In this document: positions 31,420 through 56,982 of the stretch, in pieces | How the letters are laid out: every line of letters starts with the position of its first letter | Numbering within the stretch: position 1 is the stretch's first letter | NCBI GenBank assembly: GCA_032718475.1 | Contig: JAUCBJ010007390.1 | Coordinates: 1-60,204, forward strand | Direction of reading: 5' to 3' | Origin: Nemertoderma westbladi | Taxonomy: Eukaryota > Animalia > Xenacoelomorpha | DNA length: 60,204 nucleotides | The notes under the pieces: model-generated | The model's input: only the letters and a program-made list of their open reading frames with translations | What the model was told of the DNA's origin: nothing | Databases searched by the model: none | Translations under genes and position numbers: made by a program

Positions 31420-32689
31420 TGTAAAAGCTTCTGTGGGATATAACTGGCCCTTTTGCTTCGCAATCCAGTTTCCCCCCTAGGCGCTGGAATACTCTAAAAG
31501 GCTCTCTAACTATATATAATTTCCCCTCGCCCGCAAGGTACCGTTATAAGTGTTTTAACGGACATAAAAGTCATTCTTCTATATACGTGTTTTGGCGGAC
31601 ATGGTAAGGCAAAAAACCTGCAATGCACCAAATACCTTTCACAGCTTAGCCGTGATGATTCATATTACGACATCTAACAGCTGGTTGCTGACATGGAAAC
31701 AGCCATTGGCCACATGGTTCTTTGTTTAGCTTAAGCCAATCAGAGCGATTTTTTCTGTCGATGTGGAGCTTTTCGGCCGATCATACTAGGAGTGTTCAGT
31801 CTTACTGTTTTTCTTGATACTTTGTGTTGTTGCTTTCTAGGCCAGGAACACCGGCTCTAGAGTCAATTCGTTTTCAGACTTTAGAAGAAACATTAGTAGG
31901 CTTAAGATTATAGAGCGTATAACTGTTATCAGTTCAATTCATATCAATCATAACGACTCAATCGGCACATACATTGTCATATCATATCTTAACCTACCGT
32001 CTTAATGTTTTACTGTTGTCATATTTTGTATTAGTTGGTTGAATATTATTTGGAGAACATTTATAAAGAACCCAAATTTCCCAATTTTCTTGATACACTA
32101 CAGGTTAGAGAGACGGGTTATATATAGCGATTGCGACTTATATTATTGTGTTTGTAGTGAATTTAATGCTATTTGATAAGCACTACATTGGTCCGTTGCT
32201 GTTCTCTCTATATATGATAAAATTCATTGACGGTCGGCAAATTAGTGAGCAGTATTGTGTGTTACCGGTAGTGTGCATGATTGTGACTGATAACTAAGCA
32301 TTTCCTAAAGAATGCGCCTCATACTTGAATCATAAGCCTTACCGACTTACCGTTGTGATTAGTATAAGTCATATCTCTGTTTACCTAGATAGAGCGCCAC
32401 GTCCAAAAGGAACTGTTAATATTTCCCGAAAGTAAATAATATTAGTCAGAAATTTATTAACGATCAATCGAATAATACAGTAAGCTTACACTGCAATAAT
32501 AATCTAAGCCCTCAGAATCCAGCCCCCCGGGTATATCCAGCGGGTGAATGGACGCGCACTAGGCTGGCTTCTGCTAATGTTGTGTTTATTGGTATTAAAT
32601 ATTTGTCAACTTCTAAAGTATATTTATAAACCAAAAGACATATAAATTTTGGCAGGTTAAACTGCTAAAGGTCTTCAAAAGCGCGTACA
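31420..32689 (+). repeat. 5' LTR
   Basis: TGTAAAAGCTT...GCGCGTACA; near-identical to 52748-54017. Confidence 0.95.
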
Positions 32690-32754
32690 ATAACAGTTAT
32701 TGACTTTATTGCAGTAAGCAATAAAGTTGAAAGTACCGGTCGACCGGTAAACCT

Positions 32755-32882: not shown

Positions 32883-33049
32883 AGTATAAGTACATTAGTA
32901 TTATTCGATTTTGATTATTGTATACCGGTAGGTCTTAGTATTTAATCAGGGACTGCAGCCCTGGTTCTTTATTGAGATTTTACTTATTTCTGTCGGTTTT
33001 ATTTACATGTAAGTTAATATTGAGCTGAAGACGTGTAAGTCTGCTCAGA

Positions 33050-33632: not shown

Positions 33633-34925
33633 AGTTTATGCGATTATTCGCAACATTCATGTCCCCAAGTTTATTCCTACAGTAATTGTGTTTGTTATAC
33701 ATACCGTTATAGTTAAATTAACCCCAGTACTACACGGGCTGCTTGGCGTAGGAAAAGACTGGTGACTTTATGCTTCGGTCACTCCAGCAGATGCCGTGGT
33801 TCTTTTAACTGTTCAAGTATATTTAACTACTGATTATTTGTTGTACCAGTACTTGTACCTAATTTAGGGTTTAGTGTACAGTGCTTTCCGAAGTAATTAG
33901 TGTGTAGGCAGTATATTTGTGTTGTAAAGTGGTTAATAGGCACGTTGGATCTGGTAGTCCGCGGTAATTAACTTCCAGGTAGGAACACTCCGTGATACAT
34001 AACGTAGTACCTATAGCGATACGGCTATAGGTCGTCAGGCGGTGGTATTTTCCTATCTGGACAGTGCAATATATTTACTACTACTTATTATTTTCAAATA
34101 CCGTAGTACCCTGTCCTTTGTAATAACCAGAATTCTAACCCTTTGTTAGGCTGGTTTGTAGACTTCCTGTAAAATTACACTAAAATTTCGTACGTAATAT
34201 TTTTGTTGTGTTTAAGTAGAGATTTAATCTCACCCGTATCGTAAGTAATTTGTAGTATTAAGTAACTTAGGTAAATTAGAATTATCTGTTTTAGTGTCCA
34301 ATAAGTAGCACTCCACTGAGAGCGCACAGCTTCCGTGTAGTGACTTCCCCCAGAAATAATAACATTTATTTCAAATATTGACAAAACCCATTTTAAACGG
34401 GTATATATCTATTATAAATCAACTCAAACGATTTATAAATAGTAGGCCTGCCATACAACAACTAGGTCTCAATATCAGTTGGACTACTGCTTAAATAACG
34501 GTAATAAAGTAAGTTAAAGTAACCAAGTAACCCTAAAATATTCAGAAATTCAATTATTCTAAAATAATTGACATACCGGTATTTACCATAGGCTTATTAT
34601 ATTTATTTCTATAAATTTGGGCTGAAATCATACCGGTACTCTGTAATTAATTCTAGTTCATAATTATACTTATATATACTATAAGTGTAAGCTGTATACC
34701 GGTATTCACGATAGGCCTATTATATATTTATATATATTTGTGCTAAAATTATATACCGGTACTCTGTGACAAACCTAGTTTACAATACTTATATATACTA
34801 TAAGTGTATACCGGTATTCTCATATACTGCAATAAATTACCGGTACTAGGCCAACGGTCATACTGAATTACTAGACTTGCTTTAACTGTAACTATAGCAG
34901 TAAGCATTCAACTGTATAGCTAAAC

Positions 34926-37900
34926 ATGTCTGACACCCAGCAAAACCTGTCAGACAGTCTAATCGATACAACCATCTGTGACACAGATAGGAGTGTGGAG
35001 CGATTAAGAAAGGAGTTCAGCTCACCTCCTACTGAAAGAAAGGTCATCCCTCCAGTAGTAGTATCAGACCCTAAGCTAATCCAACACCGTAGGTCTATCA
35101 TCGGCACTCGGGCCCAAGTCAAACGGAACCAGGAAGCAGCTGTCTCACAGCAGCAACAGCCTAGTCAAGAAACTTGTTCCCAGCGATCCGATAGCTCCAT
35201 TAGTTCGGATACTGTCGAGCTGAACCCCGAACGCGGATTGCAGATGGCGGCTACAGCCTACTCGGATCCCCTTCTCACCCTTCCTGCCGCAGTGCTAACT
35301 ACTATATTGATTGCGGTGGAGGAACATCAAGTCGATTGGGCGAGAAATAAGCGAGCGACCCAAGATAATTATGCGGGATACGCCAGGGAAGAATTGATGT
35401 CTATTGTCGAGTCACAATGGAACTTTCCCGGACCCGGACTCCCGTTAGATCTGTCCGAGGCTACTTGGGAAGATATACACAGGATGGGAGTGGCTAAAGA
35501 TACGATGGATCCAGCTGTTTGGAAGAGGTCGGCAGCAGGATATGTGCAGGGATTCTTCGGCTCCTTAGAGCGATTAGAAGAACAACTGTTTCGACAACCC
35601 CAAGGACCTCAAGAGCAGGAAGAACTGCTATATCAAGTACGCGAAAGAACCCTACGCATTCGACTAATCCTATCAGCTTTTGAAGAAACTTCCAAAAGAA
35701 GACAGGACACGTCGCTGCAGGTTTCTGTTAAGACTTGGTTCCAGCGGGTAGGTCTCAAAGTGCAAAAAACGGACCAGTGGAAATCCCAGCTGTCTGAGAG
35801 ACTAACTTATGAAGAACCAACCGATGCCACCCTTTCTCAAGTGGAAGGCGAAGAGACCGCAGAGAAACCACGAACGAGAGACGCCATAGACATTTATCTG
35901 TCCGACTATCAGCGATTCCTAGGAGACGAAGAGTTGAGGAGACGGCTGTCTGGACTTTCCCCTAATAGTGAAGGAACCCAGCGTGTGTTAGACTCAATCG
36001 ATGCTGAAATGTTAGCTGCTAACCAAGCAGAATTTGATGAAAAACTCCGCCTCGCTAGAGTCCAAGAAGAACAAGTAAAGAAAAGACGGATAGAGGAACA
36101 AAAGGCGGCGGCTATGGCAGAAGCAGAAGTAGATAGAAAGGCAGCGGCGGCAGAAGCAGAAGCAGAAAGAAAGGCAGCGGCGGCAGAAGTAGAAGCAGAA
36201 AGAAAAGCAGCAAAGGCAGCAGCGGCAGAAGCAGAAGCAGAAAGAAAGGCAGCGGCGGCAGAAGCAAAGGCGGAAAGGGCAGTGGCAGAAGCAGAACGGA
36301 GAGCGTCTGAGCAGACTACCCAACTGGAGTTGGAAAATCTGCAAGAGACGCAAGACAACATAAATAAACAGTTAACTGCTAGTAAATGCAGATGATGAGA
36401 CGATCTACTCCCAAACGCCAGGGATACACATCATCGGAGGAAAGCGAAACCACCGATCCTAAAGGCGGAGGAAATAGATCTCGTCTAAGCAGGCGTAGAA
36501 AAACATCTCACCGTCACAAATTGCCTGATTTGCCCCCAGCTGTTAGAAGACAGCTAGCTAGCGCAGACTTAGGTAGTACGGAACCCACATACCAAACTAT
36601 TCAGGTCAAAAGACTCCCTACAATAGTTGATGAGCCTGAAATAATTAGGCCTGTCGTTCCCAAAGTCACACCTGTGCTAGAGACCCCTGTACTTCCAGAG
36701 CTTAACTCTAAGTTCCCTTTACACAGTACTACACTGCCTGTACCCAGTAGAACAGTCCATGAGAATATTCCTGTCCTGGAAGCTGAGAGAGAAATCAAAG
36801 ATTTGTCTCCCGTCGTCCCACGTCAGCCCGCTACAATGTTGGCGACTCCCGCTTCGGCGGTCGAGTGGGTAGAGGAGGGACGGCGGGGGATGAATCTCCT
36901 GCTCGGACAGATGCAGGAGACTGTCTACCAACTTAAGGGAACAGTAAGGGAAGGTAGGGCCGAATTGCAAGAAGTGCAGCAAAGTATCGCGCTAGAACGC
37001 GATTAATTAGTCAATATCCAAAAGGGGATACCAATACCCCCTGTAAAATTGTGTCAACCTGTTAGGTCTGAAGTATTACATGCGCAAGGTGTGGAGCCTA
37101 CACGCATCTATACTGCTAGTGAAGTAGAAACTCCTATAGCAAACCCTATTAAGGGTGATTATAAATCTGTTGTTAATGATATTCCCTATAGACCTGATAA
37201 TGATCCGAGAAATTTATATACCGATAATTCGATATTAAATAACACGATGGCCCAAGAAAGCTTTACGCGTCAGATGGCTAGAACAGAAGCCCGCCAAGCG
37301 GTCAAAGTGGGAGAGATCGTCAAATTCAATGGAGATGAGATGAAATGGTTACCTTTCAACGAATATTACAAAGATAGCATACAAAACTCTGTACTATCTA
37401 ACGGAGAGAAACTTAGGTTCCTCATCAAGTGCTTGGAAGGACCTCCCAGGTTAATGGCGTTAAAGTTTATTGGACATCCAGAAGGATTAAGACAGGTATG
37501 GGATACATTAAACATCAGGTATGGTAACAAGGATAACATAGCTAAGTATTTGTATGCAAAATTAGTAGCCCCCCGACACTTCCTTAGTAGCGGGATTATA
37601 GAGTTTTCCGATGAAATTCAGGAGATCTGTAGACAATTGGACTGGTTAGGTAAGTCTCATGAATATCAGAGTTCAATGGTTATTGGAGCCGTAGTCTCTA
37701 CTTTACCAAAGGGTGGAGTATGTACACGCTGGGACAAGAAAGTGTTGTACATGAATGAACAACAACGACGAAGTCCTACCATGGCTGATCTCATGTCCTT
37801 CTTAGATGGTGAGGTAAAACTACAACTCATCAAGCAGTCCAGAGAGAAAACATCGGAAAATAAGGTAAGTGAGAAACCCGCTTCTAGGAGAAGAGTAACA

Positions 37901-38008
37901 CCGGTGTGTTACACTGACGACGGCGAAAGCCAAGCTTCTCAAGAAGAGGACAGCGGGAAAGACACTGAGAGATCTTACTACGTTGAAAAAACCTCAAAAG
38001 TACAGTGA
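34926..38008 (+). pseudogene. gag: BEL/Pao gag region, disrupted (frameshift ~36390, in-frame TAA 37004-37006)
   Basis: Long N-terminal extension with an AEAEAERKAAA coiled coil, then the DUF1759-type core KFNGDEMKWLPF..LSNGEKLRFL..LEG..RYG. Confidence 0.8.
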
Positions 38009-41000
38009 CGAACTAAACGATGAGATAGAGCGCTGCAACGCTAGAACTCGGGACGAACTAGCCGTACGATTCTTTACCCAAGAACTGGTAGAGCCCAATT
38101 CATATGATAAGGCCCTATCGATAGAAGAAGAAAGAGCCAAGCAAATCCAGGAAACAACTACACGTTTTTTAAAGGAACAAGGTAGATATGAAATCGGCCT
38201 ACCATTTCGAAAACGAGAACCTAGATTTATAAATAACAGACCCTTGGCAGAGAAAAGAATCGCTCAATTACATCGACGCCTTACAGCTAATGCTTCAGCG
38301 AAAGAAATGTACCAAACTCAGCTGAAGAAATTTATAACAAAGGGATACGCGGAACGAGTACCGGAAGGAACACCAGTGACTGAGAGAACGTATTACTTAA
38401 CACATCATTACGTTCCCAAACCCGGTAAACCCCATGAAGTCCGAGTCGTATTCGATGGCTCTGCGCTATATATGGGCCAATCCCTCAATTCCGAGTTGTT
38501 ACCCGGACCCAACTTACTCCAATCTTTGTTGGGAATACTTTTGAGATTAAGACAATACTCCATCGCGTTCGCCTCCGATATCGAAGGAATGTTCTTACAA
38601 GTCAAGGCGCTGGATAGAGATAGAGACAGCCTGAGATTTCTGTGGTGGCCTGAAGGAGACCTCAATCAGAAACCGGTAGAATACTGGATGACCATCCAGG
38701 CCTTTGGAATCATATCAAGCCCTTCCAACGCCTGCTCCGTGGTGCGAACCACTGCGAATGACAACCGAGACTCCTTCTCAAAAGAGGTGATAGACAACAT
38801 CAAACGGAATATATACATGGACGACAATTTAATGTCCCTTCCATCAGTAGAAGAAGCCATAGATGTCGCGAAAGGAACGGTAGAGTGTTTGAAAAGAGGT
38901 GGATTTCGACTGACGAAATTCACCAGCAACTCCCGTGAGTTTCTGGAAGCGATACCGGTAGAAGACCGCGGAGCGAAAGACCTAGACTTAATAAAGGACG
39001 ATCTTCCTGAAACCAAGACGCTTGGCTTGAAGTGGGACACTGAAAGAGACATCCTGTTTTTTCAGCTCAAACAGCGAGATAATCCAGTTCGGACCAAACG
39101 GATTTGTTTAAGTATCCTGAGCACTTATTTCGACCCATTGGGATTTATTAGCCCAGTTATATTGATTGCTCGGAGTTTAGTACAACAAATGTGGCTTGAA
39201 AACCACTCATGGGATGATCCGCTTAAGGGAGAATTGTTAAAGAAATGGATGAAATGGGAAGATTCTCTACCTGCCATCGAGAACTTTATAATTTCCCGTA
39301 CCTATTTTGGCCATGTTCTTCCTACGTATTCCTATCAACTCCATGTGTTTGGAGACGCCAGCGACATGGGAATAGGTATAGTAGCATATCTACGAGTCGA
39401 AACCCCGGATGGAATCAAAGTCGCCTTGGTTACCTCTAAGGCATTGATTAACAACAAGTTAAAGGTTCCTCGAGCGGAGTTAAAGGCGGCTTTATACGCT
39501 ACAGCCATCGGCCGGAACGTAACGGAACAAATCGACTATCCACTGGAGAAAACGGTTTATTGGACCGACGCTTTACTCGTGTTGGAGTATCTAACCAATG
39601 AAGTCTGTCAGTTCAGCGTTTTTGTTACTAACAGAGTAGCTATTATTCTTAGTCGCACAAAGATAGATCAATGGAGACATTGCCCTGGTACGATTAATCC
39701 AGCCGATATCGCCTCCAGGGGAGCAACTCCACAGGAACTGATAGATACTCCAGATTGGTTGGGTGGACCCGACTTCCTGAGCAAGGAAGAGGATGAATGG
39801 CCTCCTCACCTTACTACGGCAGAGATTAGACAAGCCAAGGGAGCGGAGACAGTCAAACCTAAAACCCGGGCGAGTAAATCGAAGTTATTTAAACCGACTA
39901 TCGATCTATCTGTATTACATACTTCCGGGAATGATGCTTCGGATCCCCAATCCCTCAGCACAAATAAGTCTGTTGTGGAAATTAGAGATAAAGATTGGAA
40001 ATCTGGAATACCAGACGTCTCGCAAGGAATCTCACCCATGCTGCAGAGAGCAATGCATCATTACAGTTCCTGGAATCGGCTCTGTAAAGCCGTCACATAT
40101 TTAAGACGATGTTTTCATCATCACTACTCCAGGACGAAGACCACTAGTGATACCGCTCCATTGACATCTGCACAAGTTCATGTTATTAAAAATTTACCCA
40201 AATATAAGACATCTGACCGATTTCTAAAGGAGAAAATTAGTCACCAGGAGCATGAAGAAACCAATAGGCAGATACTGAGACTCCTGCAATGCTATGAGGA
40301 TTCCGAAAAGTATTTCCTATTGTTGAGAAATCCGCAGATGCGCTTAAGGGATCGATTCTCGAGCACAATGATAGATGGGTTAATACGTGTTGGAGGAAGA
40401 CTCACCAACGCGCCCTTATCCTTTGACACCAAATTCCCCATACTTATTAGAAATCTTGAAGTACAAATCAAGATGATTGTAGATGTTCACAGTAAACTTT
40501 ATCATGCTGGTAGAGAACGAATTCTTAGCGAAATTCGAACTCGCTATTATTTTGATAAACCCCGTAGAGCTCTGAACCAAGTTCTTAGGAACTGCATACC
40601 CTGTAGGAAAGCATTCAGTAGGCCTTTAACACAGCGAGAGGCAGAATTACCTAGGGAACGAGTAAGCTTCTATGAACCACCTTTTACTAATACTGGTGTA
40701 GATTTATTTGGCCCTATTGAAGTATATCGTGCGAGGACTATAGTCAAGAGATGGTGTGTCATCTTCGTGTGCATGACTTGTAGAGCCATCCATCTCGATA
40801 TGGTGAACGATCTATCTACCAACAGCTTCGTCTTAAGTTTACGACGACAGATCGCTCGCTTCGGGACGAGTAATACCATGAGATCGGATAAGGGAACGAA
40901 CTTCATTGGTGCCAACAACGAAATACAGGCTTACGTGAAGGACTGGAACCAAAGACAGGTGGACGACCAGCTAAGGATAACAGCGTCTAGCTGGACCTTC

Positions 41001-41693
41001 AACGCCGCCGACGCCCCTTGGTGGGGAGGAAGTTGGGAGAGATTAATTCGAAGTGTCAAAACCGCATTTCACTTTATAGTGCCATGCCGCGCGTATCTCA
41101 CCGACGAACTTTTGCGGACGTTAATGGAGGAAATAGATGCCTATCTCAACGAGAGACCGCTTATGCCAGTCTCATCGAGTCCCGATTCCCTGGAAGCGCT
41201 AACACCCGCGCACTTCCTACTGAAGAAACCTGTAGCCATGCTCCCACGATTGGAGATTGCCGACGGAGACGAATACTGCCGTCGAACTTGGCAACTTATG
41301 CAGTTGCTATCCCGTCGTTTCGCTGACCATTTCGAGAAACATTATCTGCCCACGCTACAACTTCGAACTAAGTGGTTTGCGCAGCAAGATATGGTGCTTA
41401 TTGTAGATCCAGACCTCCCACGTAAACGGTGGCAGACAGGTCGTATCATCGAGACCCACATCTCAGATGATGGTTTAGTGCGCTCAGTAGAACTTGTCGT
41501 CATGCGGCGTAACTTCAAGAAGCCAGGCATAATCTTTGAGACGCAACAACTCAATCGCCCAGTTGGTCGTTTATGTTTACTGGAAAGAGACAGAGAACTC
41601 TCCGGGAACTATGGAAGGCAAGACACTCTTCCCACGACCACCTCCCTAATTCCTCAAACATCCAGTAAGCAACCGAGGGTGGACTCTCTATAG
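37983..41693 (+). CDS. pol: BEL/Pao pol: RT, Pao RNase H, integrase; protease absent
   Basis: GRYEIGLPF, RVVFDGSA, ASDIEGMFLQV, IYMDD, FDPLG, HVFGDAS, PRAELKAA, NPADIASRG, H-H-CxxC, GVDLFGP, SDKGTNF, WWGGSWERL. Confidence 0.93.
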   Translation: MKKPQKYSDELNDEIERCNARTRDELAVRFFTQELVEPNSYDKALSIEEERAKQIQETTTRFLKEQGRYEIGLPFRKREPRFINNRPLAEKRIAQLHRRLTANASAKEMYQTQLKKFITKGYAERVPEGTPVTERTYYLTHHYVPKPGKPHEVRVVFDGSALYMGQSLNSELLPGPNLLQSLLGILLRLRQYSIAFASDIEGMFLQVKALDRDRDSLRFLWWPEGDLNQKPVEYWMTIQAFGIISSPSNACSVVRTTANDNRDSFSKEVIDNIKRNIYMDDNLMSLPSVEEAIDVAKGTVECLKRGGFRLTKFTSNSREFLEAIPVEDRGAKDLDLIKDDLPETKTLGLKWDTERDILFFQLKQRDNPVRTKRICLSILSTYFDPLGFISPVILIARSLVQQMWLENHSWDDPLKGELLKKWMKWEDSLPAIENFIISRTYFGHVLPTYSYQLHVFGDASDMGIGIVAYLRVETPDGIKVALVTSKALINNKLKVPRAELKAALYATAIGRNVTEQIDYPLEKTVYWTDALLVLEYLTNEVCQFSVFVTNRVAIILSRTKIDQWRHCPGTINPADIASRGATPQELIDTPDWLGGPDFLSKEEDEWPPHLTTAEIRQAKGAETVKPKTRASKSKLFKPTIDLSVLHTSGNDASDPQSLSTNKSVVEIRDKDWKSGIPDVSQGISPMLQRAMHHYSSWNRLCKAVTYLRRCFHHHYSRTKTTSDTAPLTSAQVHVIKNLPKYKTSDRFLKEKISHQEHEETNRQILRLLQCYEDSEKYFLLLRNPQMRLRDRFSSTMIDGLIRVGGRLTNAPLSFDTKFPILIRNLEVQIKMIVDVHSKLYHAGRERILSEIRTRYYFDKPRRALNQVLRNCIPCRKAFSRPLTQREAELPRERVSFYEPPFTNTGVDLFGPIEVYRARTIVKRWCVIFVCMTCRAIHLDMVNDLSTNSFVLSLRRQIARFGTSNTMRSDKGTNFIGANNEIQAYVKDWNQRQVDDQLRITASSWTFNAADAPWWGGSWERLIRSVKTAFHFIVPCRAYLTDELLRTLMEEIDAYLNERPLMPVSSSPDSLEALTPAHFLLKKPVAMLPRLEIADGDEYCRRTWQLMQLLSRRFADHFEKHYLPTLQLRTKWFAQQDMVLIVDPDLPRKRWQTGRIIETHISDDGLVRSVELVVMRRNFKKPGIIFETQQLNRPVGRLCLLERDRELSGNYGRQDTLPTTTSLIPQTSSKQPRVDSL

Positions 41694-41756
41694 CCGAGGG
41701 GCACTTGTATAATAACTAATAATCACGAACCCCATCCTCTTATAATATATAACTCT

Positions 41757-41825
41757 GTAGTAGTCAGTAGCAGTAGTAGTAATAGTAGTAGTAGTAGTAG
41801 TAGTATAAGTAGTAAGTAATAGTAA
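41757..41825 (+). repeat. (TAG)n-like microsatellite
   Basis: Directly visible. Confidence 0.8.
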
Positions 41826-43051
41826 AGGAGATCGGTTTAAACCAAAGTGATAAAGTAACATTATTATATAACATAATCATATAGACAAAGTAGAATAAGA
41901 TACAGATTCATAATTATTTTATCAAACTCATGTACTACTTACTTCAATGTGCCCATTGTAATAATAATTAAACATATTATTCCGATTAATCTGTGTTTGG
42001 CCCTATAAGATATTATACTGAAGTGTTTTATATCAATATATCCATGCGAGTAAACAAGAAGTGAAGTAAATGTTTATTATTATAGTTTTAGAAATTGAAT
42101 GATATACCCAAGATAGTGAAATAGATAATATACAAGAAATTGCCATTTGATCAGATATATCAAAGCGGCGTCTTTAGTATAATACCGTAATAGTATCAAT
42201 TAACTCTGTTATACAATGTAAATATACTACATTTATTTATAAATATATTATGAGCCCTACATTGTATATTTCTCCTACAGGTAGACAATGTAGTATGTTA
42301 AAACTTGATATAATTTGATATAATGTATAACATATTACAAATAAGACTGAGGCAGCTAAACTATATTGCAAAGAAATCAAATATCCTAAAGTAATATACT
42401 AGACCCTCCCTCCACCCTATAAATAGTGTTCACCACCTACCCCACCCACCGCCCTTATTACTTCATAATAATGAAAGATAGTACTGGCGCTCCGGTCACT
42501 CCGTTCCCTCCGCTGGGGGGGTTAAGTTGTAGGTTTTGACACTATGCAAAATCCGAGCACAGAGTTAGAAGCGCATTGGATAGGCGAACATTTCTTGCAG
42601 TGAAAGTATTTCCATACCTATTATAGTTTTCGAGATAGTCAGACATGAGTAGCTAAAATTTGAATTTTTTTCGGTAAAGTCTGATTTCACCGGTACCTGT
42701 CATCCGAAATATGGATTGTGATATATCGTTAGATGCGGGTCCACTAACTGTACATTCACATATTTTCAAGGAAAAAATTCGATCAAGGGTTTTCGAAATA
42801 TTTTCGAATTACCGGAAGCAGACTTTGGACGACCATATCTCCAGTACCGGTAGGCCTATTGAGTCGAAATTTTTTTTAATCTACTTAGAACACTCCAGTG
42901 AATGTTTTTTAGTTTGAAAGTTTTGCCCCAAAATGCTCAGAAGTAATTTCGAAAAAACTGATAATTTCGCGATCATGATCTTTTGACCCCCTAGAATTGA
43001 ACTTTTTAATGGTCAAATTTTGGCTACCCCCCCTAATTCGAGCGACCCCCT

Positions 43052-44520
43052 AAAATCGGGGGTCTCAAACAAAGTTTTCGAGAAAATCGGGAAAAACAGA
43101 AAAACACGATCTTTTATGATCAGGAAGCTGATCTCGAGAACTGGTTGCCCGATCGAGCCAATTTTTTTTTATCAACTCAGAATAGACCATTGCACATTTC
43201 TTACAATGAATGTTTATTAGAAAAATGCTTAGATTCGATTTTAAATATACTGATCTTTTCGCGATCATGATCTTGAGTTTTGACCCACTAGACTTGAACT
43301 TTTTTATGCCCAAATTTTGGCTACCCCCCATAATTCGAGGGTGAGGAATCTTTTTGTGATGTTAAGTTTATCCATACGGTGAACTCCCAGGACTTGGTCT
43401 TCGAAATAAAACAGAAAACACGATCTTTTCTGATCGCGGCCTGATCAAATCGCTTTTTGAAAATTTCGAAATGCTCAAAAGTTGCCCCTTCATCATAGAA
43501 GTCGATTCGTAAAAAAAAAATCGGGGGTCTCAAACAAAGTTTTCGAGAAAATCGGGAAAAACAGAAAAACACGATCTTTTATGATCAGGAAGCTGATCTC
43601 GAGAACTGGTTGCCCGATCGAGCCAATTTTTTTTTATCAACTCAGAATAGACCATTGCACATTTCTTACAATGAATGTTTATTAGAAAAATGCTTAGATT
43701 CGATTTTAAATATACTGATCTTTTCGCGATCATGATCTTGAGTTTTGACCCACTAGACTTGAACTTTTTTATGCCCAAATTTTGGCTACCCCCCATAATT
43801 CGAGGGTGAGGAATCTTTTTGTGATGTTAAGTTTATCCATACGGTGAACTCCCAGGACTTGGTCTTCGAAATAAAACAGAAAACACGATCTTTTCTGATC
43901 GCGGCCTGATCAAATCGCTTTTTGAAAATTTCGAAATGCTCAAAAGTTGCCCCTTCATCATAGAAGTCGATTCGTAAAAAAAAAATCGGGGGTCTCAAAC
44001 AAAGTTTTCGAGAAAATCGGGAAAAACAGAAAAACACGATCTTTTATGATCAGGAAGCTGATCTCGAGAACTGGTTGCCCGATCGAGCCAATTTTTTTTT
44101 ATCAACTCAGAATAGACCATTGCACATTTCTTACAATGAATGTTTATTAGAAAAATGCTTAGATTCGATTTTAAATATACTGATCTTTTCGCGATCATGA
44201 TCTTGAGTTTTGACCCACTAGACTTGAACTTTTTTATGCCCAAATTTTGGCTACCCCCCATAATTCGAGGGTGAGGAATCTTTTTGTGATGTTAAGTTTA
44301 TCCATACGGTGAACTCCCAGGACTTGGTCTTCGAAATAAAACAGAAAACACGATCTTTTCTGATCGCGGCCTGATCAAATCGCTTTTTGAAAATTTCGAA
44401 ATGCTCAAAAGTTGCCCCTTCATCATAGAAGTCGATTCGTAAAAAAAAAATCGGGGGTCTCAAACAAAGTTTTCGAGAAAATCCGAAAAAACTAAAAAAT
44501 CTGATCTTTAATGATCAGGT
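43052..44520. repeat. 465-bp tandem repeat: 3 apparently identical units plus diverged partial flanking copies
   Basis: Identical ORFs recur at 43065/43530/43995; related degenerate sequence spans ~42830-44850. Confidence 0.95.
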
Positions 44521-45723
44521 ATCAGATCTCGAGAACCGGTTGTCCGATCGAGCCAATTTTTTTTTTAATCGACTCAGGGCGGTGTTCTGAACGTTTCCTA
44601 CAGTAATTGTTTATATCCAAAATGCTTAGTTACGATTTTACGAAGTCCGATCTTTGCGCGATCATGATCTTGCGTTTTGACCGGGAAGAATTCACTTTTT
44701 TTTAAATATTTTAACGGGAATCATGACTAATGTGGGGTCGCTGAATCTTTTTGTAATGTTAAGTTTTTCGATTGGAGCAAGCCTTGAGTGTCCGATACCT
44801 GATCAAAACTGATCTTTGCTGATCACGGTCAAGATCTTGATCGGGCAACTTCAAACTCGAAGTTGTGAAGGTAAACCAATATGCTGCCTATCGATTGGCG
44901 CCGGTCCCAACTCCGTAGCATTAGCCGTTTTGGCTGTAGCTCCATAGCAACGTGGTTGCTAGGGAAGCGGACTTTTTGACTCAAATTGGCCCTAGCCGGA
45001 GAACCGTAGACTTTTGAAACGTAATGTATATGGGAAAAAGTCTTCTAGATAAATTTTGGGGGGGGGGTCTAGGAACATCCTATTGTTCGTTTTCGCTTAG
45101 TTGCTGAGATCCTCTCGTCCCACAAATTCCAGGATTCTATAAAGGCATTCTGCTGGACTAGTTCCGTGGCCGGAATAGTGTTCGGTGTTCTGCGAACAGA
45201 GAACCTAATCGGTTTAGGGCCCTGACAGTCTAGGGACTCCCCCACGTGATACGTCTGGAGTGGGTGTATGACTATATTATTTTATCTATTTTGTTATATT
45301 TTTATATGCGAACTTTATTATGTACTTTATTATAATCGTTTTTATTCAATTTTATTTAGTAGAATGTTATTTTAGTGATTATTTAGTAGATTAGTGCAAT
45401 ATATTAGTGTTTATTACGTACGTAATTACTTATAATATATATTTAGTGCGACGGCGAGAAATAATTTTTTCTCTTTCCTTACTGTCCGTATCATATTATA
45501 AATACGTGACTACAGTAAGATGAAATGTCCGTACTTCTTAAAGTACAATAAAGCCACTACTATATTCAAGTATTATTGGTAGGCAGAGAATTAGGAATGC
45601 AAAGTTCAGATCCTCGTGTCTCGGCTAAGCCAAGCTCTGGGTAGACCTTGGAAACGACTTGCCTCTTCACACTGACATTGCTTCGTGCGATATTGCTCTT
45701 CTACCTTATATTAAATAATACAT

Positions 45724-46980
45724 ACTAGAAAGGCATTTCCTAAAGGAAATGCGACCACGAAGCTACGGAAAATTAAACAAAGGTTGCTTAGCCTAGTTTA
45801 GTAGCAATTGCCAATAAATAACTTCTATTCCCATGGAAACTAGAGTTCTCTGAAACTGTTGGTTTTACCTTTGAAAAAAGATTCAGTCCAGATTGTGGTT
45901 CAGATAACACATACCAAGTTTCAGAAAATATTGTAGTTTATGTCCAACTACCGATTTTCTATCAAAATGCATCTGTTTGCAGTGGTTGTCATGGAATCTG
46001 AAAAATAGAACAATGTAATTCGGATGCAGAATAAGTCATATAATGGGGGTAGGTCTTGGTCCCAAGTCATAATACTATTAACTTGTGTTTCAAATGATCA
46101 TTTTAGAAATTTTAACATCTGTTTTGTCTTATTGCTATGGTAATTGGATTGTGTAACTAACCTCGAATGGATTGTATATGGACCTTACAGATGAGTTGCA
46201 AAACCCCAAATTTATATTTATTACATTATTTTGCTACAAATAGAGTATTGAATTTAGACTTGAATGATATAGACTTTAATAAACTCCAGTTACCATGGTA
46301 ACAAGATATTTGTGGAATGTTTTCAGTTTCACTAAAAGTTCCAACTAGTGGTCCAGATAACACATTCCCAGTTTCGTAAAATTTTATCGCGAAGACTATG
46401 TCCAAATGAGTAATTTTTGTATAAAAACATCTGTTTTCAGCGGTTGTCATGGTAACTGCAAAATAGAACAATCAAATTCGGACGCAGAATAAGTTATATA
46501 GTGGGGGTAGGGGTTGGTCCCAAGTCATAACACCATAACCTTAGGCTTCAAATTAACATTTTATAAATTTTAACATCTGTTTAGCCCGGTTGCCAAGGTA
46601 ACTGGATTTTCTATTTAACCTCAATCGGCTCTGCTATGGACCTTATAGTTGAGTTGAGAAACCCCAAGTGTTTATATCTATTATAGTTTTCCTACAAATA
46701 GAGTTATAAATATTGACTTGAAATACATAGACTTTTTTCTAAGTCCGTTGCCATGGAAACCAGATTTTTCCTGGATATGAGACCCAGCCCAAAAGATGCG
46801 CCTCGTCGAGTAGTATATACATGCAAAATTTCAGGGTACTTTTAAAGGCTAGTTTTTTCACCTATCAAAAAACACTAAATCTGCTCCATACAAGTAAAAT
46901 AGCCCACTATGAATAGACCATCTCAGCTAAGGAAAATCTTTCTTAGCGAAAGTAGTTGATTTTCCTTAGCTTCGTGGATA
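45724..46980 (-). mobile_element. Non-autonomous Helentron/DINE-1-like element with an internal ~470-bp diverged duplication
   Basis: Subterminal inverted repeats ccacgaagctacggaaaat (45755-45773) / attttccttagcttcgtgg (46959-46977). Inner IR at 46925-46938; hairpin gcatttcc/ggaaatgc next to a terminal CTAG (45725-45728). Confidence 0.65.
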
Positions 46981-48125: not shown

Positions 48126-51100
48126 ATGACGGAGTTGATAGAAGATGATCTTGGTATTAGGGAGCGATATGCTCTACCTTTGCAAGCATTTGTGGATAGC
48201 TTAATACGCGGTGAAGCCGATCCAACCATTACGGAGGACGATGGTCGTTATATCGAACCGCCGATGTCCCAAGAGCAACTTGCGCGTGAATTGGACTATC
48301 GAAAATTCACCACTCGCTATACGAATCGTAATGGTACGTATATGGACTTCTTAACGACCGGCCATCCTATCGATTTACATGATACGGACGATGTAGATAC
48401 AGAGAGGGAAATGGTTCTATTTAAATATCATACCCAGCGGAGTCGTAACGATAAACCGAGAATAGATCACGAAAATTCTATTCGTAATCGACTGGAAAGA
48501 GAAAACGTTGAAGAACCGGATAAATGCCTCGACTTCAACGAATACCTAGAATTTTTGAGAGAAACCTATCTCAACATCGCCAGTCAGCAGAACTTAGAGA
48601 CTCGATATCCTCAAGGTATACATCACGACCCTGTGGTAGAACTCAAACGGCTCTATTTCACTATGATGTATCTTGCCGCCGATCGTCCACTACCTGTTAT
48701 CCCGGATAGTTTTGAACAAATAAAAAGTAAAAAAGTAAATTTTCTTCGGCCGCTAGGCCAGGGATTACGCACAAAGTCTGACGACTTATTTCCAGTGCGG
48801 TCCCCCCAGAACTTTACTCCCCAGAGGAAACTCCAGTTCTCATTTAGCTACCACTTAAGGATGCAAGGCAGAGATGCGCCCTGGCTGGTCCCTTTAAAGC
48901 ATTCGTTCCGAAACGAAAACTGCCCTGGCCCATGTGAGGATCGAACCCACGACCTACGGGAGATGTGAATTCAATGCAACCACTACACCAAGGTGGAACC
49001 TTGGAACAAATGGAAGAATACTGCAAAACTGGAGAACGATCACCCGCGTTTCCTCTACAGGACGTACGTCTTTGGTATTATTGTGACGAATGCCCTAGAC
49101 CCAACCAACAAACTGAAAGACATAAACATCCGCGGAGACGTTGCGCTAAACACAGCTTTACGCGTTACACTTACGGGAGTTTTGAGCGAAACCTGTTCGA
49201 CGTACCACCTACGATCGCTCGTCTTAAACGATCACTGAATAAACCCATGATCAGAGTTCCGGAATACTCGGTCAGGCCTCCTCATTCCCTAGTGAGACCT
49301 CAAACTCTTGATCCTAACAGTATCACTGATCCTCCCGAACTATATTCCCTGTTCAAAGACTTAGTGTTACCCGAACAATTAATCGGTGGTGTTCCGGTAG
49401 TGGGTTCGTTAGACATCCGCCCATCCTACTTAGCCGGATTGGGACGCGGGCAGCTAATATCGCCCTTTGATCCTTACAATCGTCCAGGATTAAACCCGAT
49501 GCAACCCGCCACGGAAGTCGAGGAGAGCGTTATAAGAAACGCTTTAGACGCCATTCGACAGAAAATCGGAAAGGGAACACAAGATTGTTTAGAGAAACGT
49601 AAATTACAACAACAAGTCCAATCGGTGAAGGAGTTAGCCTTGCCACAATTCGATAGAGAAATCCAAAACCTCGAGGAAGACATCGAGCTTGGACGCACGT
49701 ATTCTCTACAAGAATTTTTAGATGAACGCTTACAGAGACAAGCGGAAGAAAATCTACTCGAAGAGAAACACACGAAACTGGAAGAGAGAGAAGAAGCCGC
49801 TTTAGCCCAACCGGAAGCTCAAATCCTCATGACCGACCTCTACTCTAAAACCGTTCGTCATCCCTCGATGATTCCACATTTCGGGGACAAGCTCTTCGCG
49901 ACGATACAACCTCAACCGGTTGATATCAGTGCAGGATCGCAAAATCTTATCGCTGACGCCCCTATGTTACAGCGTCCGCCGATCGAGGCCGCTCGTGTTG
50001 ACGGTATACTCGTTGAACCTCCGGACAATCGAGCGGATCTTGTCCGTCGTATGGTACACGATGTCAACATACGCGCTAGACCTTTACAGAACTCGTTTTA
50101 TGGGATTAAAGACCACCCTTATTACGTTAATCTGACTCAATATTATATGGTAAAACCAGAAGACCCGACACATAATTTAAAGTTTCTACCACTAATAAAT
50201 CCTCTAGACATTGTCGAACTCGAACAATTGCAGAAACATCTGGATCAGTTAGTAAAGGTAAACTCATTTAGAAAACCATATAACATTTCTCGAATCGAGA
50301 AAGATATAGAACCTCCTTATAATCTCGATGGATTTATTAAAACTCGATTAGTCCATTGGAATCTAGATGTATTATTTGAAGAAGAGAAAATACAAAGATA
50401 TGGAAATGTGGAGATGTATACCACTCGGCACATGAAGTATAGTGATCTCCCTGACGCTAACCAATGCGCCACCTTGTGGCATCCAGTAGGGATGACCCTA
50501 GAGAACGCCACCAAGGAGTGGAATGAAACTCTTAATGTTATTGAGATGTATGGAGTTGTCACCTACGATAATGAAGGTAGCGTTCCGGTCGGAGAACTAG
50601 GAACTACGCGCATGATACACATACGCGGATTAGCGGGTTCTACCCACGTGTTTACTCGAGCGTGTTCCGACGTGATTGATTATTCTTTTGAAACTCTCAC
50701 CGAAACACAAAAGAATCTCCGACATGGACAATTCGAACTCGCGCAGCGTTACGTCATTGACACCGAACGCAAACCGGCCATGGGCATCGATGGATCGATG
50801 TTACCCCAGCCCGTACTCGAGATGTTATTCAACGAAAGAATCCTTAAAATCGGCTCAGCTGTTTATGGAGATCTCCAAAACGACTTTCGGAATATGGAGA
50901 ACATTCCATACCCTTTCGTTGATACTCAGTTGATTGCTCCCTGGGCAGAAGGTCGAGGTTTCTTCCGCACCATGTATGCTAATACGTCTAGCAACATTAC
51001 AAAGGTGCAACGAACTTCCATCGGACATCTTGCCTTTCAGGAATATGGATGGAATTTCAAAGTCGGAAATCCCATTAACTATCAACAAGTATACGGAGAC

Positions 51101-52669
51101 CATTATTCTCGATTATACTTTGATGGACCATTGACCGCACCTGGCGCCGTGTATAGCTTCATGAGTGTTCCACTCCGTCCCTCCTTAGCTATATACACGA
51201 TCTTTGAAAATACCGCACTTGCCGGTTGGCTAGCCGATGTGTGCAGTCGTACTATACGCGCCCATCCATTAATACTTGGGACCAAACTCGCTAAGCTAGA
51301 TGAACATAATAAATTCATCCGTTTCGAATGTTTCCGGCGATTTTTAACCCCGTTCCGCAACGTGGATAGCCAATTTAAAGACCGCGCTTTGACCAAACTC
51401 AGCCTAAGAAACTCAGCTGCAGAGAAGTTGGATAGCGCTGGATTCGCCATTTTCAAAGAGATTTGTATATCGAACTTGCACTCCTCTGTTATACAAAGAC
51501 CTCGAATCCCCACAGGTTATTCTGTCGTGGAAATTCAGACAATAGGTCCACCTGAAGAGACAGACGCGCCCACTTCAGCTATGCACTTGGAAGACGAACC
51601 AATATGTCTAGAATCTGAAGAGATTCAGCCTATCGCGCCCCGGAACAGCGACAACGATTACATCATAGAATGGTATCAAGGTCCACAGTGTCTCACTGCG
51701 TACGATTATCGACATGCCAACTATGTTTCTAGGCAACGTTGTCGGTTATGCGCATCGAGAGACCACGATACGCCCATGGACACCAACGTCCGCTGTTCCT
51801 ATTTCCAAGAACAACCGACTATGGAAATTTATTGCGCATATTGCAGACTCAATAACTTGCATATCTTTGCGGTTTGCCCTCAATTTATGACTCAATGTCA
51901 CCATTGTCAACTAAAGGGACATGCTAGTTTCGACTGCCCTTTTAATCACGATTTGGAAAGCGTAGATGAAATGATCACACTACGTTACATCAGAGCTTGG
52001 GAAGCGAACGCTGATTTACATTGTGATTCGCGCCATCGCTATTATCCCGGACGCGCTTACGAAGGAGTTTATGCGTTCCATCCTTATCTATTCGCTTCGG
52101 TTGAACAGAAATCACGCATATCAAGTTACGAGCTACTGAAGCGCGTTGGAGAATGTATTTCAACCAAATTCGTACGCAAATTTCTCAGGAGTGTTAATCC
52201 TAGCGACCTTCATTCCTATAACTTAATCAATTATATCCGTCAGGATCCGGACTATGGAGACTTGTTTGTTAACTCACACCCCGAGTTACAGGAAGTATAT
52301 CGACGGCCTTACGAATACCGAGCCCGCGAACACGAGTTGGAAAGGACCATTAAACCCCGGAGGTTTCTAACTGCCTATGGTCCACCCACGGCCCTCGTTC
52401 AGACCACTCGTAAAGGACCCGTAAGAGCGGCTGTCTTGAAACGAGCTCTCAAAGCCGTTAGACCCCTCTCCCTGGACGTTGATGTCAATCAACCCGGTAC
52501 TTCGACTGGCGGATACACCGACCATAATCCTACACCCTCTGATGCAATCATATTGCACCCTTCACCCAGGAGTTATAGCCCTCCTTGTAAAGTGGCTCGC
52601 CCCAAAGAGAAAAGGACTCTGGCTAGCTTTAAGAAACTGCGTAAACGCCGTCCGCGCAAGAAAGACTAA
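48126..52669 (+). CDS. Retrotransposon cargo gene, ~1417 aa after removing the SINE: coiled coil, DEDDy (WRN/EXD/Mut-7-like) 3'-5' exonuclease, CCHC knuckles, basic C-terminal NLS-like tail
   Basis: ExoI VVTYDNEG; ExoII LPQPVLEMLFNERILKIGSAVYGDL; FVDTQ; SIGHLA; ExoIII-like PLRPSLAIYTIFE; CAYC..H..C and CHHCQLKGHASFDC; KKLRKRRPRKK. Confidence 0.75.
48722..49003 (-). mobile_element. tRNA-derived SINE with 8-bp TSD GAACAAAT (48714-48721, 49004-49011)
   Basis: Minus-strand A-box TGGTGTAGTGGT, B-box GGTTCGATCC and (TTTAC)-like tail. Removing it restores the host ORF. Confidence 0.88.
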
Positions 52670-52747
52670 CTGTTTAGAGTATTTACGTATATTAGAAACT
52701 GTGATTTTGTATATTTTATAGACTCAAATCCCATTTTCTGGGAGCGG

Positions 52748-54017
52748 TGTAAAAGCTTCTGTGGGATATAACTGGCCCTTTTGCTTCGCAATCCAGTTTC
52801 CCCCCTAGGCGCTGGAATACTCTAAAAGGCTCTCTAACTATATATAATTTCCCCTCGCCCGCAAGGTACCGTTATAAGTGTTTTAACGGACATAAAAGTC
52901 ATTCTTCTATATACGTGTTTTGGCGGACATGGTAAGGCAAAAAACCTGCAATGCACCAAATACCTTTCACAGCTTAGCCGTGATGATTCATATTACGACA
53001 TCTAACAGCTGGTTGCTGACATGGAAACAGCCATTGGCCACATGGTTCTGATTGGCTTAAGCCAATCAGAGCGATTTTTTCTGTCGATGTGGAGCTTTTC
53101 GGCCGATCATACTAGGAGTGTTCAGTCTTACTGTTTTTCTTGATACTTTGTGTTGTTGCTTTCTAGGCCAGGAACACCGGCTCTAGAGTCAATTCGTTTT
53201 CAGACTTTAGAAGAAACATTAGTAGGCTTAAGATTATAGAGCGTATAACTGTTATCAGTTCAATTCATATCAATCATAACGACTCAATCGGCACATACAT
53301 TGTCATATCATATCTTAACCTACCGTCTTAATGTTTTACTGTTGTCATATTTTGTATTAGTTGGTTGAATATTATTTGGAGAACATTTATAAAGAACCCA
53401 AATTTCCCAATTTTCTTGATACACTACAGGTTAGAGAGACGGGTTATATATAGCGATTGCAACTTATATTATTGTGTTTGTAGTGAATTTAATGCTATTT
53501 GATAAGCACTACATTGGTCCGTTGCTGTTCTCTCTATATATGATAAAATTCATTGACGGTCGGCAAATTAGTGAGCAGTATTGTGTGTTACCAGTAGTGT
53601 GCATGATTGTGACTGATAACTAAGCATTTCCTAAAGAATGCGCCTCATACGTGAATCATAAGCCTTACCGACTTACCGTTGTGATTAGTATAAGTCATAT
53701 CTCTGTTTACCTAGATAGAGCGCCACGTCCAAAAGGAACTGTTAATATTTCCCGAAAGTAAATAATATTAGTCAGAAATTTATTAACGATCAATCGAATA
53801 ATACAGTAAGCTTACACTGCAATAATAATCTAAGCCCTCAGAATCCAGCCCCCCGGGTATATCCAGCGGGTGAATGGACGCGCACTAGGCTGGCTTCTGC
53901 TAATGTTGTGTTTATTGGTGTTAATTGGTTTTGTCAACTTCTAAAGTATATTTATAAACCAAAAGGCATAAAAATTTTGGCAGGTTAAACTGCTAAAGGT
54001 CTTCAAAAGCGCGTACA
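52748..54017 (+). repeat. 3' LTR
   Basis: Same termini and length as the 5' LTR; preceded by a purine tract and followed by the TSD. Confidence 0.95.
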
Positions 54018-55802
54018 GTAGGTTGCCGTTGTTTGATTACCTTCCGCTGACCTTGTCATCATGCCTAGCCGTTGGTTGATTATCTTCCGCCTATCCATGG
54101 CCTACAGCCCTGCTGCCGACTGTAGGGGTCCTTTTGTTACACCTTGAATCAAGTGTGCCTACTGGGTTAGGTTACCTAACACTGATAGAGGAGCATCCAG
54201 TATAGACAGAGCGGGGCGTGTATCATCTCTGTTGCAGATGCGCATCAAGCCTTTGCCTTCAATGGTGCCCTAGGCGCTATAGCCCTCAATGACTTATTTA
54301 ATTGACGGGGATAAAACCAACCCACTCTTGATCAACTAAATAATGAATAGGCTACTACTAATAGACCAGTTTAAGTAATAATAAAATCAATAATATATTT
54401 ATAAGGCGTCTTTTAAGGGCAATACTAATACTACAAGGCGCTCTAAAACAGACATGAAATAACAATTATGGGTGGGACTATTAATTAAAAACTGTAATGC
54501 ACATTATTCCGTAATGGAAAACTACTATCTAATAATAAGGTAAAAGCTTTAACGGTGTACATGTACATGTGGGTATATACAGTAGTTAAAATACAATATT
54601 ATCATTTCTGCATCAAGCATTATAAGGGATGATGGATCGAGAGTTATGAATTGTTGCACGTGTTGTTGTGAGTGATAATTTTAAACAAATATATGATATG
54701 ATATATGATATATATGATATTAGAAGGGCAATTACGTTGGAAATAATATTGGTTGTGGAGGGAAAGAATGGCGTGATATATGATGAGTGACTGACATATG
54801 ACACTATGAGAAGGAGTGTCCATTTGGATACATTGGTAGGAGACTGAACAGACAATAGTGTGTTGAACCTGACTAAATGCTGCGTTTTAATAACTTTTAG
54901 TATATATATATAGATAAGTTTTAATAATCCTTGTTTGATAATTAGTTTATATGAAGTCATACCTTCTTACATTACAAAGGCATACTGTAGCTGGAAGGAA
55001 GACTAGATAGTGCTTACAGTAGCAGCAGTGTAAAGTTATCAAAGCCAGTAAGAGAGCGGCGCCCTTTTAGATACTTACTTACTCTTTAATGGTGATTTTC
55101 TGAGTAGATAGGTTTGTATCCATGTGGACCAATATGGATCCAAGGGAATGGATAATTAAGTTCATACTCTAGTCTTACCCCTCCGCCATTTTTAAACCGA
55201 TTTTCGAATATTTTGTTTGATTTATTTTCGGCTTTTAATCAGAAGTTATAATTTTATCATAAGTTGATATTTTATATATAATTTTATCAAAAGTTTTTAG
55301 AATGTTGAAATGTTTATTATTATTATTATTTTTAAAGTAGTTTATATATATTTCATATGATGTATTTAATACTCTTTAGGACGACAGACCAAAATTAAAA
55401 CCGATCAGTTTTATAGGGTGAAGAAATTTAAACACACACGCCTCCTAAAAAATAACAACAATAATTATGTTTCAATAGTGCGACGAGTTTAAAGAATGTA
55501 AAGAAAACGAGATTGCGCTTGGGAGCTCTGACTTTGAATAACTGCTTTACCAGTTATTGCTACTGTCTTTGCTATATGCTGGGTTATGAAACCAAAGCTC
55601 AATACGTGTGTTTCGACGAGCAATGGGATAACCCGTTGCAGTTCGCACATGAGCTATATGATTATGACTTGGAGAATATTTCACAGGATGTTATAAACAA
55701 AATATTTCAGGATCTAAGTATTAATTCTCAATAATTGATTCTTGTTTATTACGAATGTTACAGTTCAATTTCTACAATAGGGCCTAACACTAAAATCATA
55801 TA

Positions 55803-56982
55803 TGGACGGTGTTATGCAAAAGGGTGTTATCCCACATTTTGTCCAAATTGAGACTTTTTGGTAGCTATTCGATAGAGGAAAGTGTAATCTACCTAATTTA
55901 TGAGATCCTATTATTGCCCAATAATTCGAAGAAATGCCTTTAAAATACAAGAAAGTTAAGCCACAGTCCGGATTTGTGATTAGTCAAAGAGTGTTAAACC
56001 ACAAATAATATTGCAAAAAAGATTTAATCCACATAATAATTTTGTGGCTTGTCATCTTTTGACATCTTTTTGCAAGTATGACACCTTTTGACAATTTAAC
56101 GTTTTGACAAAATTTGAAGTTTTCCATAAGTGTTAAGCCACATTTTGATCAATATTTCGGAGAAAATGCTATAGTCTAGCACAGTAACTTGAAAAATACT
56201 TTAATTTCCATAAATGTTTTCTTATAAAAACACAACAGTATCTGGATAATACAACAACGATCACACAGGATGTTAAAAACTTTGATATCGATTATCTCAA
56301 ATTGAACTTTTTTTGGCTTAACACCCTTTTGCATAACACTACTACTAGGATCGGGATGCTGCATTGCAGCTGCATTTTTAAGAATGCTGTGCCGGCTTGT
56401 CATCAAAATTGCACCGCCACAACTCCCTATCACCCATGACATTTGCTAGATCATCCGCATCTTTAAGGCCAGTGTCCTTTAAGATGCGTCTCAAGAAAGT
56501 CATGGGCTGTCCACCATGCTTATTCACTCCATGAGGCTGCCAAAGTACAAGATTATGCACTGGCTGGTCCTAACGGCGAAAGCAATGTCCTGCAAAGCGG
56601 AGGCGATTTTGTTCTAGTGTCAAGCTTGGGGGAACCAATGAGACACCTCCAATGTTATATAGTGTCTGGTTGGAGATGTGTGCATTGTATTTGACACAAT
56701 GTACCCGGCGTAGCATTCTTGTGAATGTGCCATCCAGAGATTTGGTGTCCTCAGCAGTTAGAGCCCAGCATGGACTCCCGTAGAGGAGTACTGGAACTAC
56801 TGCTGCTCTAAATAATCGGACCTTAAGTTTCCGATTAATTCTAGGTGACTTCCAAATCCTGGAAAGCCTATTCAAGGCTGCCCATGCCTTTCCCTTACGT
56901 ATTCGAAGGTCCTCACCTGACTTCCGGATCCATGATCCCAGGTAACAGAAGTCGTCCACATGCTCAAGCATGACACAGTCCA
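55803..56982. mobile_element. TA-flanked MITE whose right TIR is split by an RTE insertion
   Basis: tggacggtgttatgcaaaagggtgtt matches aacacccttttgcataacac (to ~56340) plus the remainder acagtcca (to 56982). Confidence 0.65.
56341..56971 (-). mobile_element. 5'-truncated RTE-like LINE, same family as 16504-17760
   Basis: Closely similar translations (DDFCYLGSWIRKS..LRFAGHCFR) and (TAG)n tail. Confidence 0.88.

Follow-up and report, generated by a model that had tools for sequence, protein, structure and literature searches.

What kind of gene takes the place of env in a large BEL/Pao retrotransposon of the xenacoelomorph Nemertoderma westbladi, and what could it do for the element? The question is raised by a stretch of 60,204 nucleotides (assembly GCA_032718475.1, contig JAUCBJ010007390.1, positions 1 to 60,204 of the forward strand; hereafter the window), in which a long gene lies between pol and the 3' long terminal repeat (LTR). 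An earlier description made from the letters alone (hereafter the sequence-only reading) had proposed that this third gene encodes a DnaQ-like DEDDy domain and zinc knuckles at the position of env. This proposal is supported by language-model features, an NCBIfam match, a profile of our own and a distant homolog. The third gene is a real, selected, DEDDy-like accessory gene of a large BEL/Pao family, of a kind known from other retrotransposon groups. The case extends the capture of DEDDy genes by retroelements to BEL/Pao and shows purifying selection on the domain between copies.

Structure and position of the third gene

The gene is intronless and comprises about 1,400 codons in total. As first described, it runs in sense and ends 78 bp upstream of the 3' LTR (stop at 52669, 70 bp upstream of the purine tract), within the LTR pair and the GTAGG target-site duplication found on both sides; pol is 6.4 kb away and the gene is not fused to the reverse transcriptase (RT). 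It had been taken for a single open reading frame, but in this copy it consists of two frames, of 196 and 1220 codons, which flank a 290-bp insertion resembling a short interspersed nuclear element (SINE). The insertion site is crossed without the insertion by contigs of two public sequencing runs, denoted X4 and X5, and the insertion itself matches dispersed contigs in run X1. Its tRNA-like boxes are seen by eye only, and ARAGORN and Rfam were negative for it. The two gene pieces were analysed separately. The features of the gene are the following, P0001 being its distant homolog:

48126..48715, + strand: first piece, 196 codons from the ATG at 48126, without family match
48716..49005, - strand: 290-bp SINE-like insertion with a short flanking duplication; joint 48715-49006 in runs X4 and X5
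49007..52669, + strand: second piece, 1220 codons, open up to the stop
50480..51340, + strand: DEDDy/RNase D-like domain, with D50567-x-E50573 (likely first motif), D50870, DTQ at 50921 and Y51194-x3-E51206
51740..51937, + strand: three Cys/His knuckles, present in P0001 too
51941..52330, + strand: aromatic-rich block behind the knuckles that aligns loosely to P0001, without Pfam match
52590..52666, + strand: lysine/arginine-rich tail, possibly a nuclear signal

All residues named in the sequence-only reading are in frame at their places (D 50567, E 50573, D 50870, D of DTQ 50921, Y 51194, E 51206). The three Cys/His knuckles that it announced are also found, at 51740-51937. They read CX2CX4HX9C (51740-51796), CX2CX5HX4C (51833-51877) and CX2CX4HX4C (51896-51937), and only the third is canonical. 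That they could be a displaced BEL nucleocapsid was considered and rejected, the spacings being unlike those given in PMC554778 and the third knuckle ending in Cys. An env-like gene was rejected as well, because a hydropathy scan showed no signal peptide and no membrane-like hydrophobic stretch (best 19-residue hydropathy 0.59 and 1.33 in the two gene pieces), in agreement with the initial description.

Conservation of the third gene among copies

Does the gene belong to the family or to this copy only? Parts of it are present in six of the seven listed public runs, which come from four studies and carry two species labels, and the contigs of four runs leave none of the 30 bins of the interval 50440-52800 uncovered. 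Thirty of the 32 listed gene pieces are gap-free, though many differ at 10-19% of positions and identity goes down to about 81%. By contrast, only 2 of the 15 listed pieces of non-coding spacer are gap-free. The nucleotide differences considered are the best-supported ones only (40 of 2125 and 40 of 504, rows outside the gene being dropped), and the synonymous counts describe this sample of listed differences rather than estimate the ratio of nonsynonymous to synonymous rates (dN/dS). In the second piece, 36 of 47 differences are synonymous, against 15.0 expected from the same kinds of change, a value reached in 0 of 200,000 simulations. All 11 differences in the nuclease domain are synonymous (3.6 expected; again 0 of 200,000 simulations), as are 9 of 11 in the knuckle region (3.6 expected, P 0.0007). 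As to the dN/dS comparison advised by the sequence-only reading, the listed differences show a strong synonymous excess in the nuclease domain and the knuckles, but not in the first piece (4/9, 2.9 expected); the linker (3/7) and the tail (6/10) show no significant excess either. The third gene is a family gene under purifying selection.

These data bear on the idea that a host gene or another mobile element was inserted once between pol and the LTR and is carried as passive cargo. The synonymous excess rules this out for the two core domains, nuclease and knuckles. The one-off insertion that had initially been allowed for is replaced by a gene common to other copies. Gap-free divergent copies, the lack of introns and an end so close to the purine tract also argue against cargo. 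Moreover, 0-2% of the contigs from three DNA runs continue into unlike sequence (run X5 is only guessed to be RNA), and among 15 of 260 joints none skips the whole third gene. It should, however, be noted that this copy has received three other inserts and that none of the listed contigs spans pol, the third gene and the LTR, so that the linkage in other copies is pieced together from successive short contigs. Taken for the gene as a whole, passive cargo appears very improbable.

A derivative deleted for 48495-51588 occurs in three of the four runs and is prominent in X4; it has lost the nuclease domain and kept the knuckles. Since both gene ends remain, this deletion is a secondary loss.

A DEDDy-like domain with a predicted D-E-D-E site

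Comparison of language-model features (Atlas) assigns 22 of 30 matches to DNA_pol_A_exo1 clusters (best 0.91, recognition 2707), and NCBIfam gives an RNase D match with an E value of 0.0034. A profile built from 32 bacterial PF01612 domains scores 9.0 bits on the stretch from motif II to DTQ, as compared with at most 1.9 in 1000 shuffles, and every one of 144 alignment runs pairs the motif II Asp and the DTQ with RNase D. Domain searches of the Pfam type revealed no HRDC and no further signature domain in the protein.

Among 1.84 billion proteins, P0001 is the only homolog found (E 9e-7, 29% identity). It has the same order of nuclease and three knuckles, the aromatic block and the same Y-x3-E. 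The alignment of P0001 with RNase D begins at a first motif that is unambiguous (hhalign probability 81%), and its PF01612 score is 11.9 bits for a cut-off of 23.6; its nearest Atlas cluster, which is a lead only, is a euglenozoan PF01612+CCHC cluster (0.86). P0001 is an environmental protein known from a single contig of 9449 bp. Word-based protein searches at 671-2135, 356-1141 and 138-503 residues returned no homolog, and the nuclease domain and P0001 were both without match in metagenome and viral contigs. No homolog was found in phage records, and rotifer sequences were not among the matches of the homolog protein searches.

The likely first motif, D50567-N-E50573, is matched to the clear motif of P0001 by one mode of alignment. 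Another candidate, D-T-E at 50759, was rejected: only 14 residues separate it from the LP helix, which leaves no room for the two further strands, and P0001 aligns a non-motif stretch there. It is nonetheless the best scorer in a block-profile test. Motif III is Y-x3-E in both the third-gene protein and P0001, instead of the canonical Y-x3-D. The sequence-only reading had rightly seen Glu (51206) in place of the last catalytic Asp, with the doubt on activity that follows. However, because the same Glu is found in a homolog of 29% identity, comparison of the two sequences makes it an old family trait and not decay. On these motifs, the domain is DEDDy-like rather than canonical, with a predicted D-E-D-E site.

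A single-sequence AlphaFold model has a predicted local distance difference test (pLDDT) of 29. A family-guided model reaches 58, with 82-85 around motif II and about 70 at motif III, and places a helix and a strand immediately before D50567, though the alignment is out of register there. The top fold matches of the guided model are RNase D and EXD2; the others are NrnC, EXD1, WRN, Nibbler, Egalitarian and exonucleases of giant viruses. The TM-scores are low, and the matches are partly circular. The DEDDy/RNase D-type fold, for which the Atlas features are independent support, and the first motif are predictions. Of the checks named at the outset, the structural one points, with that circularity, to RNase D and EXD2, whereas the Pfam one gives nothing. 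By features and guided model, the domain would share the fold class of the cellular DEDDy nucleases (EXD1, EXD2, Mut-7/Nibbler, WRN, Egalitarian, Rrp6); at the sequence level it is assigned to none of them.

Comparison with known systems

DEDDy third genes have been described, with a DEED motif, in the rotifer LTR elements Juno1/2 and Vesta2/5 and in Athena/Terminon (PMC5408684; related: PMC5718144, PMC6431247, PMC6338049). The near-uniqueness suggested by the sequence-only reading is not supported, in view of these rotifer LTR elements and Terminons. As in the present case, the rotifer ORF3 is a third gene downstream of pol, at the env position, and its DEDDy-type domain has a changed acidic motif. 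However, the rotifer elements belong to another retrotransposon group, PMC5408684 containing no BEL/Pao family, and their motif is DEED versus D-E-D-E here. The present gene, compared by description only, is further distinguished by its ~1,400 codons, its three knuckles, its long N-terminal part and the selection shown here between copies.

The arrangement, in which several CCHC knuckles come after a nuclease domain, is shared with TbRND, the trypanosome RNase D, which binds single-stranded RNA by its fingers and removes U tails by its nuclease domain (PMC7797062). TbRND is, however, a cellular mitochondrial enzyme of ~380 residues. Its four fingers stand shortly after the domain and its last motif has Asp, whereas here there are three knuckles, ~130 residues away. 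The fusion is a likeness in build and not one of demonstrated shared ancestry. Closteroviruses also carry DEDDy genes (PMC8297929).

DEDDy nucleases have been captured more than once by retroelements. Full-text literature searches, with older subscription papers mostly outside their scope, found no DEDDy third gene in BEL/Pao. An RNase D domain is said to occur in nematode Cer elements (Cer1 or Cer13), possibly in one of the BEL class. Nothing on it stands in the available parts of PMC3315495, PMC11662393, PMC4131045 and PMC2774666, and the word 'exonuclease' is absent from the main text, as available, of the survey PMC3118150.

A possible action against RNA silencing

It can be proposed, at a probability of about 0.4 and thus tentatively, that the third gene is an accessory gene whose product, a predicted RNase D-type 3'-5' ribonuclease with three zinc knuckles, would act in trans against host RNA silencing. 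An RNA-acting enzyme is suggested because the build of nuclease and CCHC knuckles is that of TbRND. As in TbRND, the knuckles would clasp single-stranded RNA and so deliver the 3' end to a two-metal site, here with Glu last, and RNA 3' ends would be trimmed in trans. The substrates may be silencing small RNAs, their precursors, or U tails added by the host to element RNA. The protein would be made from its own shorter transcript, and its basic tail could carry it to the nucleus. That unrelated retroelements have captured DEDDy genes repeatedly, and that domain-deleted copies exist, would fit a trans-acting factor. Two cases may serve as analogies for counter-silencing: uridylation lowers L1 retrotransposition (PMC11014359), and the arenavirus ExoN suppresses immune signalling (PMC7968707). 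With an RNA-binding module known from a solved enzyme and a natural, unbroken domain, the substrate is testable. Few animal transposon weapons against small-RNA defence are known, and a counter-silencing nuclease would be among them.

Several observations weigh against this proposal. The Atlas shared-feature count is 164, just below the 170 typical of true family members; Pfam gives the domain no PF01612 match at E<=10, and its curated score is not reached. The sequence search of the PDB gives the domain no nuclease match, P0001 and the first alignment having matched the knuckles only. Only 7 of the 144 alignment runs bring D-x-E 50567 onto motif I, since an insertion of 30 residues is required, and the block-profile test lends it no statistical support as motif I. 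About 670 residues upstream of the nuclease domain have no family match and no assignable function. In TbRND, the last Asp is a direct metal ligand, the loss of which nearly abolishes activity (PMC7797062). Finally, genes of the rotifer type showed no clear link to copy number, and 3'-end processing of element RNA was suggested for them instead (Rodriguez et al., PMC5408684).

The change of the last Asp to Glu and the unsecured first motif raise the possibility of a weak or dead nuclease fold which, like EXD1, Maelstrom and Egalitarian, would serve as an RNA-binding adaptor and bind, protect or transport element RNA. EXD1 and Egalitarian are among the fold matches of the guided model, one of them being bound to I-factor RNA, and inactive DEDD derivatives in the piRNA (Piwi-interacting RNA) pathway have been noted (PMC5408684). 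Yet the third-gene protein and P0001, at 29% identity, both retain the Tyr and the four acidic positions. Dead derivatives usually lose acidic residues. We regard the adaptor as unlikely, though deserving of attention.

Architecture and length of the element

Self-comparison of the window delimits an element of 22,598 bp. The two LTRs are 99.2% alike (1258 identities, 10 mismatches, two 2-nt gaps), and the duplication on the outer flanks is of 5 bp. The features of the element outside the third gene are the following:

31415..31419: left target-site duplication, GTAGG
31420..32689, + strand: 5' LTR, 1270 bp, TG...CA
31919..31929, + strand: LTR 11-mer, exact complement of the primer-site position; second copy in the 3' LTR at 53245-53255
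32690..32700, + strand: primer-binding-site position, complement of the LTR 11-mer, with a 13-bp hairpin behind it at 32700-32730
34920..38008, + strand: gag region, three broken frames, with a DUF1759 capsid-like domain
37899..41693, + strand: pol frame with RT (YMDD at 38814), Peptidase_A17, integrase and DUF5641
41661..45228: nested insert, 3568 bp; joint 41660-45229 in contigs of runs X1, X4 and X5
45724..46977: nested insert, 1254 bp; joint 45723-46978 in all four runs
52740..52747, + strand: purine-rich tract GGGAGCGG upstream of the 3' LTR
52748..54017, + strand: 3' LTR, 1270 bp, TG...CA
54018..54022: right target-site duplication, GTAGG

In the pol frame of 1264 codons, Pfam recognizes RVT_1 (208-338, weak), Peptidase_A17 (E 4e-36), Integrase_H2C2 (E 2.5e-7) and DUF5641 (E 2e-14), so that a Pao-type RT, RNase H (Peptidase_A17) and integrase follow each other as expected for Belpaoviridae. 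DUF1759 is found in gag (E 3e-13, Pfam). These pol domains together with DUF1759 identify the element as BEL/Pao, and the LTRs, the 5-bp target duplication and the purine tract are further likenesses to Belpaoviridae (PMC8742986, PMC3118150, PMC554778). The element is a jumping gene of this type, young and present in many copies. This copy appears to be defective: neither the triple Cys-His box nor the LLDxG protease motif (PMC554778) was seen when the three forward frames of 34900-41700 were scanned, probably because this copy has suffered a deletion. At 37899-38150, gag passes into pol through a frame change, with the Cys-His box and the protease motif absent between them, despite LTRs that are 99.2% alike.

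Three stretches (3568, 1254 and 290 bp), which amount to ~5.1 of 22.6 kb, are skipped by contigs of other copies and are nested inserts. Without them the element measures 17,486 bp, and perhaps somewhat more if the missing gag-pol part exists in other copies. The insert at 41661-45228 holds about four tandem units of 465 bp (43052-44772), and that at 45724-46977 a 450-bp duplication and short inverted ends. The 2.2-kb leader (32752-34819) contains several local duplications, with units of 55, 290 and 130 bp.

The length of the element bears on whether the nuclease could be a proofreader of complementary DNA (cDNA) ends that permits a very long genome. DEDDy domains do proofread in family A polymerases, and the same idea has been proposed for the closterovirus DEDDy genes (PMC8297929). 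Even the insert-free 17.5 kb exceeds by a wide margin the 4.2-10 kb stated for Belpaoviridae (PMC8742986). However, the argument from a genome of more than 20 kb, which the sequence-only reading had raised, is weakened by the 5.1 kb of nested inserts. In addition, the DTQ and the CCHC knuckles indicate the RNA-acting RNase D group, and the distance of the gene from pol, with no fusion to the RT, also argues against proofreading, which we consider improbable.

The primer-binding site

The start of the leader may point to another use of the gene. No TGG is present in the 30 nt after the 5' LTR of this one copy, and an 18-nt tRNA-type primer site is hence not recognized in it. The first 11 nt after the 5' LTR (offset 0) are instead the exact complement of LTR 31919-31929. 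When the LTR was shuffled with its dinucleotides kept, a complement of at least 11 nt arose in 17 of 5000 shuffles, and the same holds for 1 of 436 leader control positions, the 11-mer being a near-palindrome and the test having been chosen after seeing the sequence, on one copy. When the RNA is started at 31919, the helix is present in the lowest-energy fold with pair probabilities of 0.24-0.89; it is weak for a start at 31910 and absent for 31889 and 31545. In Tf1-type self-priming, about 11 nt after the LTR are complementary to the first bases of the transcript. By analogy, the LTR-complementary primer site resembles that of Tf1. With it the element differs in a second, distinct way from its family, as Belpaoviridae are described by the International Committee on Taxonomy of Viruses (ICTV) with an 18-nt tRNA primer-binding site (PMC8742986).

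The 11-nt complement at the primer position gives anatomical footing to a primer-maturing enzyme: the primer would be RNA of the element itself, and its paired end would be cut back to the primer site by the nuclease. The absence of TGG and the helix predicted for the start at 31919 agree with such a function. Nevertheless, the complement was found post hoc in one copy, and the helix is weak or absent for the other starts. Besides, the Tf1 primer is made by the RNase H of the element and needs no exonuclease, and the repeated capture of DEDDy genes by other elements requires no such link. Primer maturation is thus rather doubtful. The fuller scenario, in which a BEL/Pao lineage would have left tRNA priming, become self-primed and recruited a D-E-D-E nuclease-plus-knuckle gene to shape the 3' end of the primer, is somewhat more doubtful still.

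Other features of the window

A broken long interspersed nuclear element (LINE), with RT and endonuclease frames, lies just left of the element on the minus strand (26316-31045). Farther upstream are found a long array of 21-bp tandem units with a strong GC skew (4168-10000) and an inverted-repeat element of about 1.6 kb (1484-3066). A 640-bp repeat occurs twice in opposite directions, at 17111-17751 and 56340-56975.

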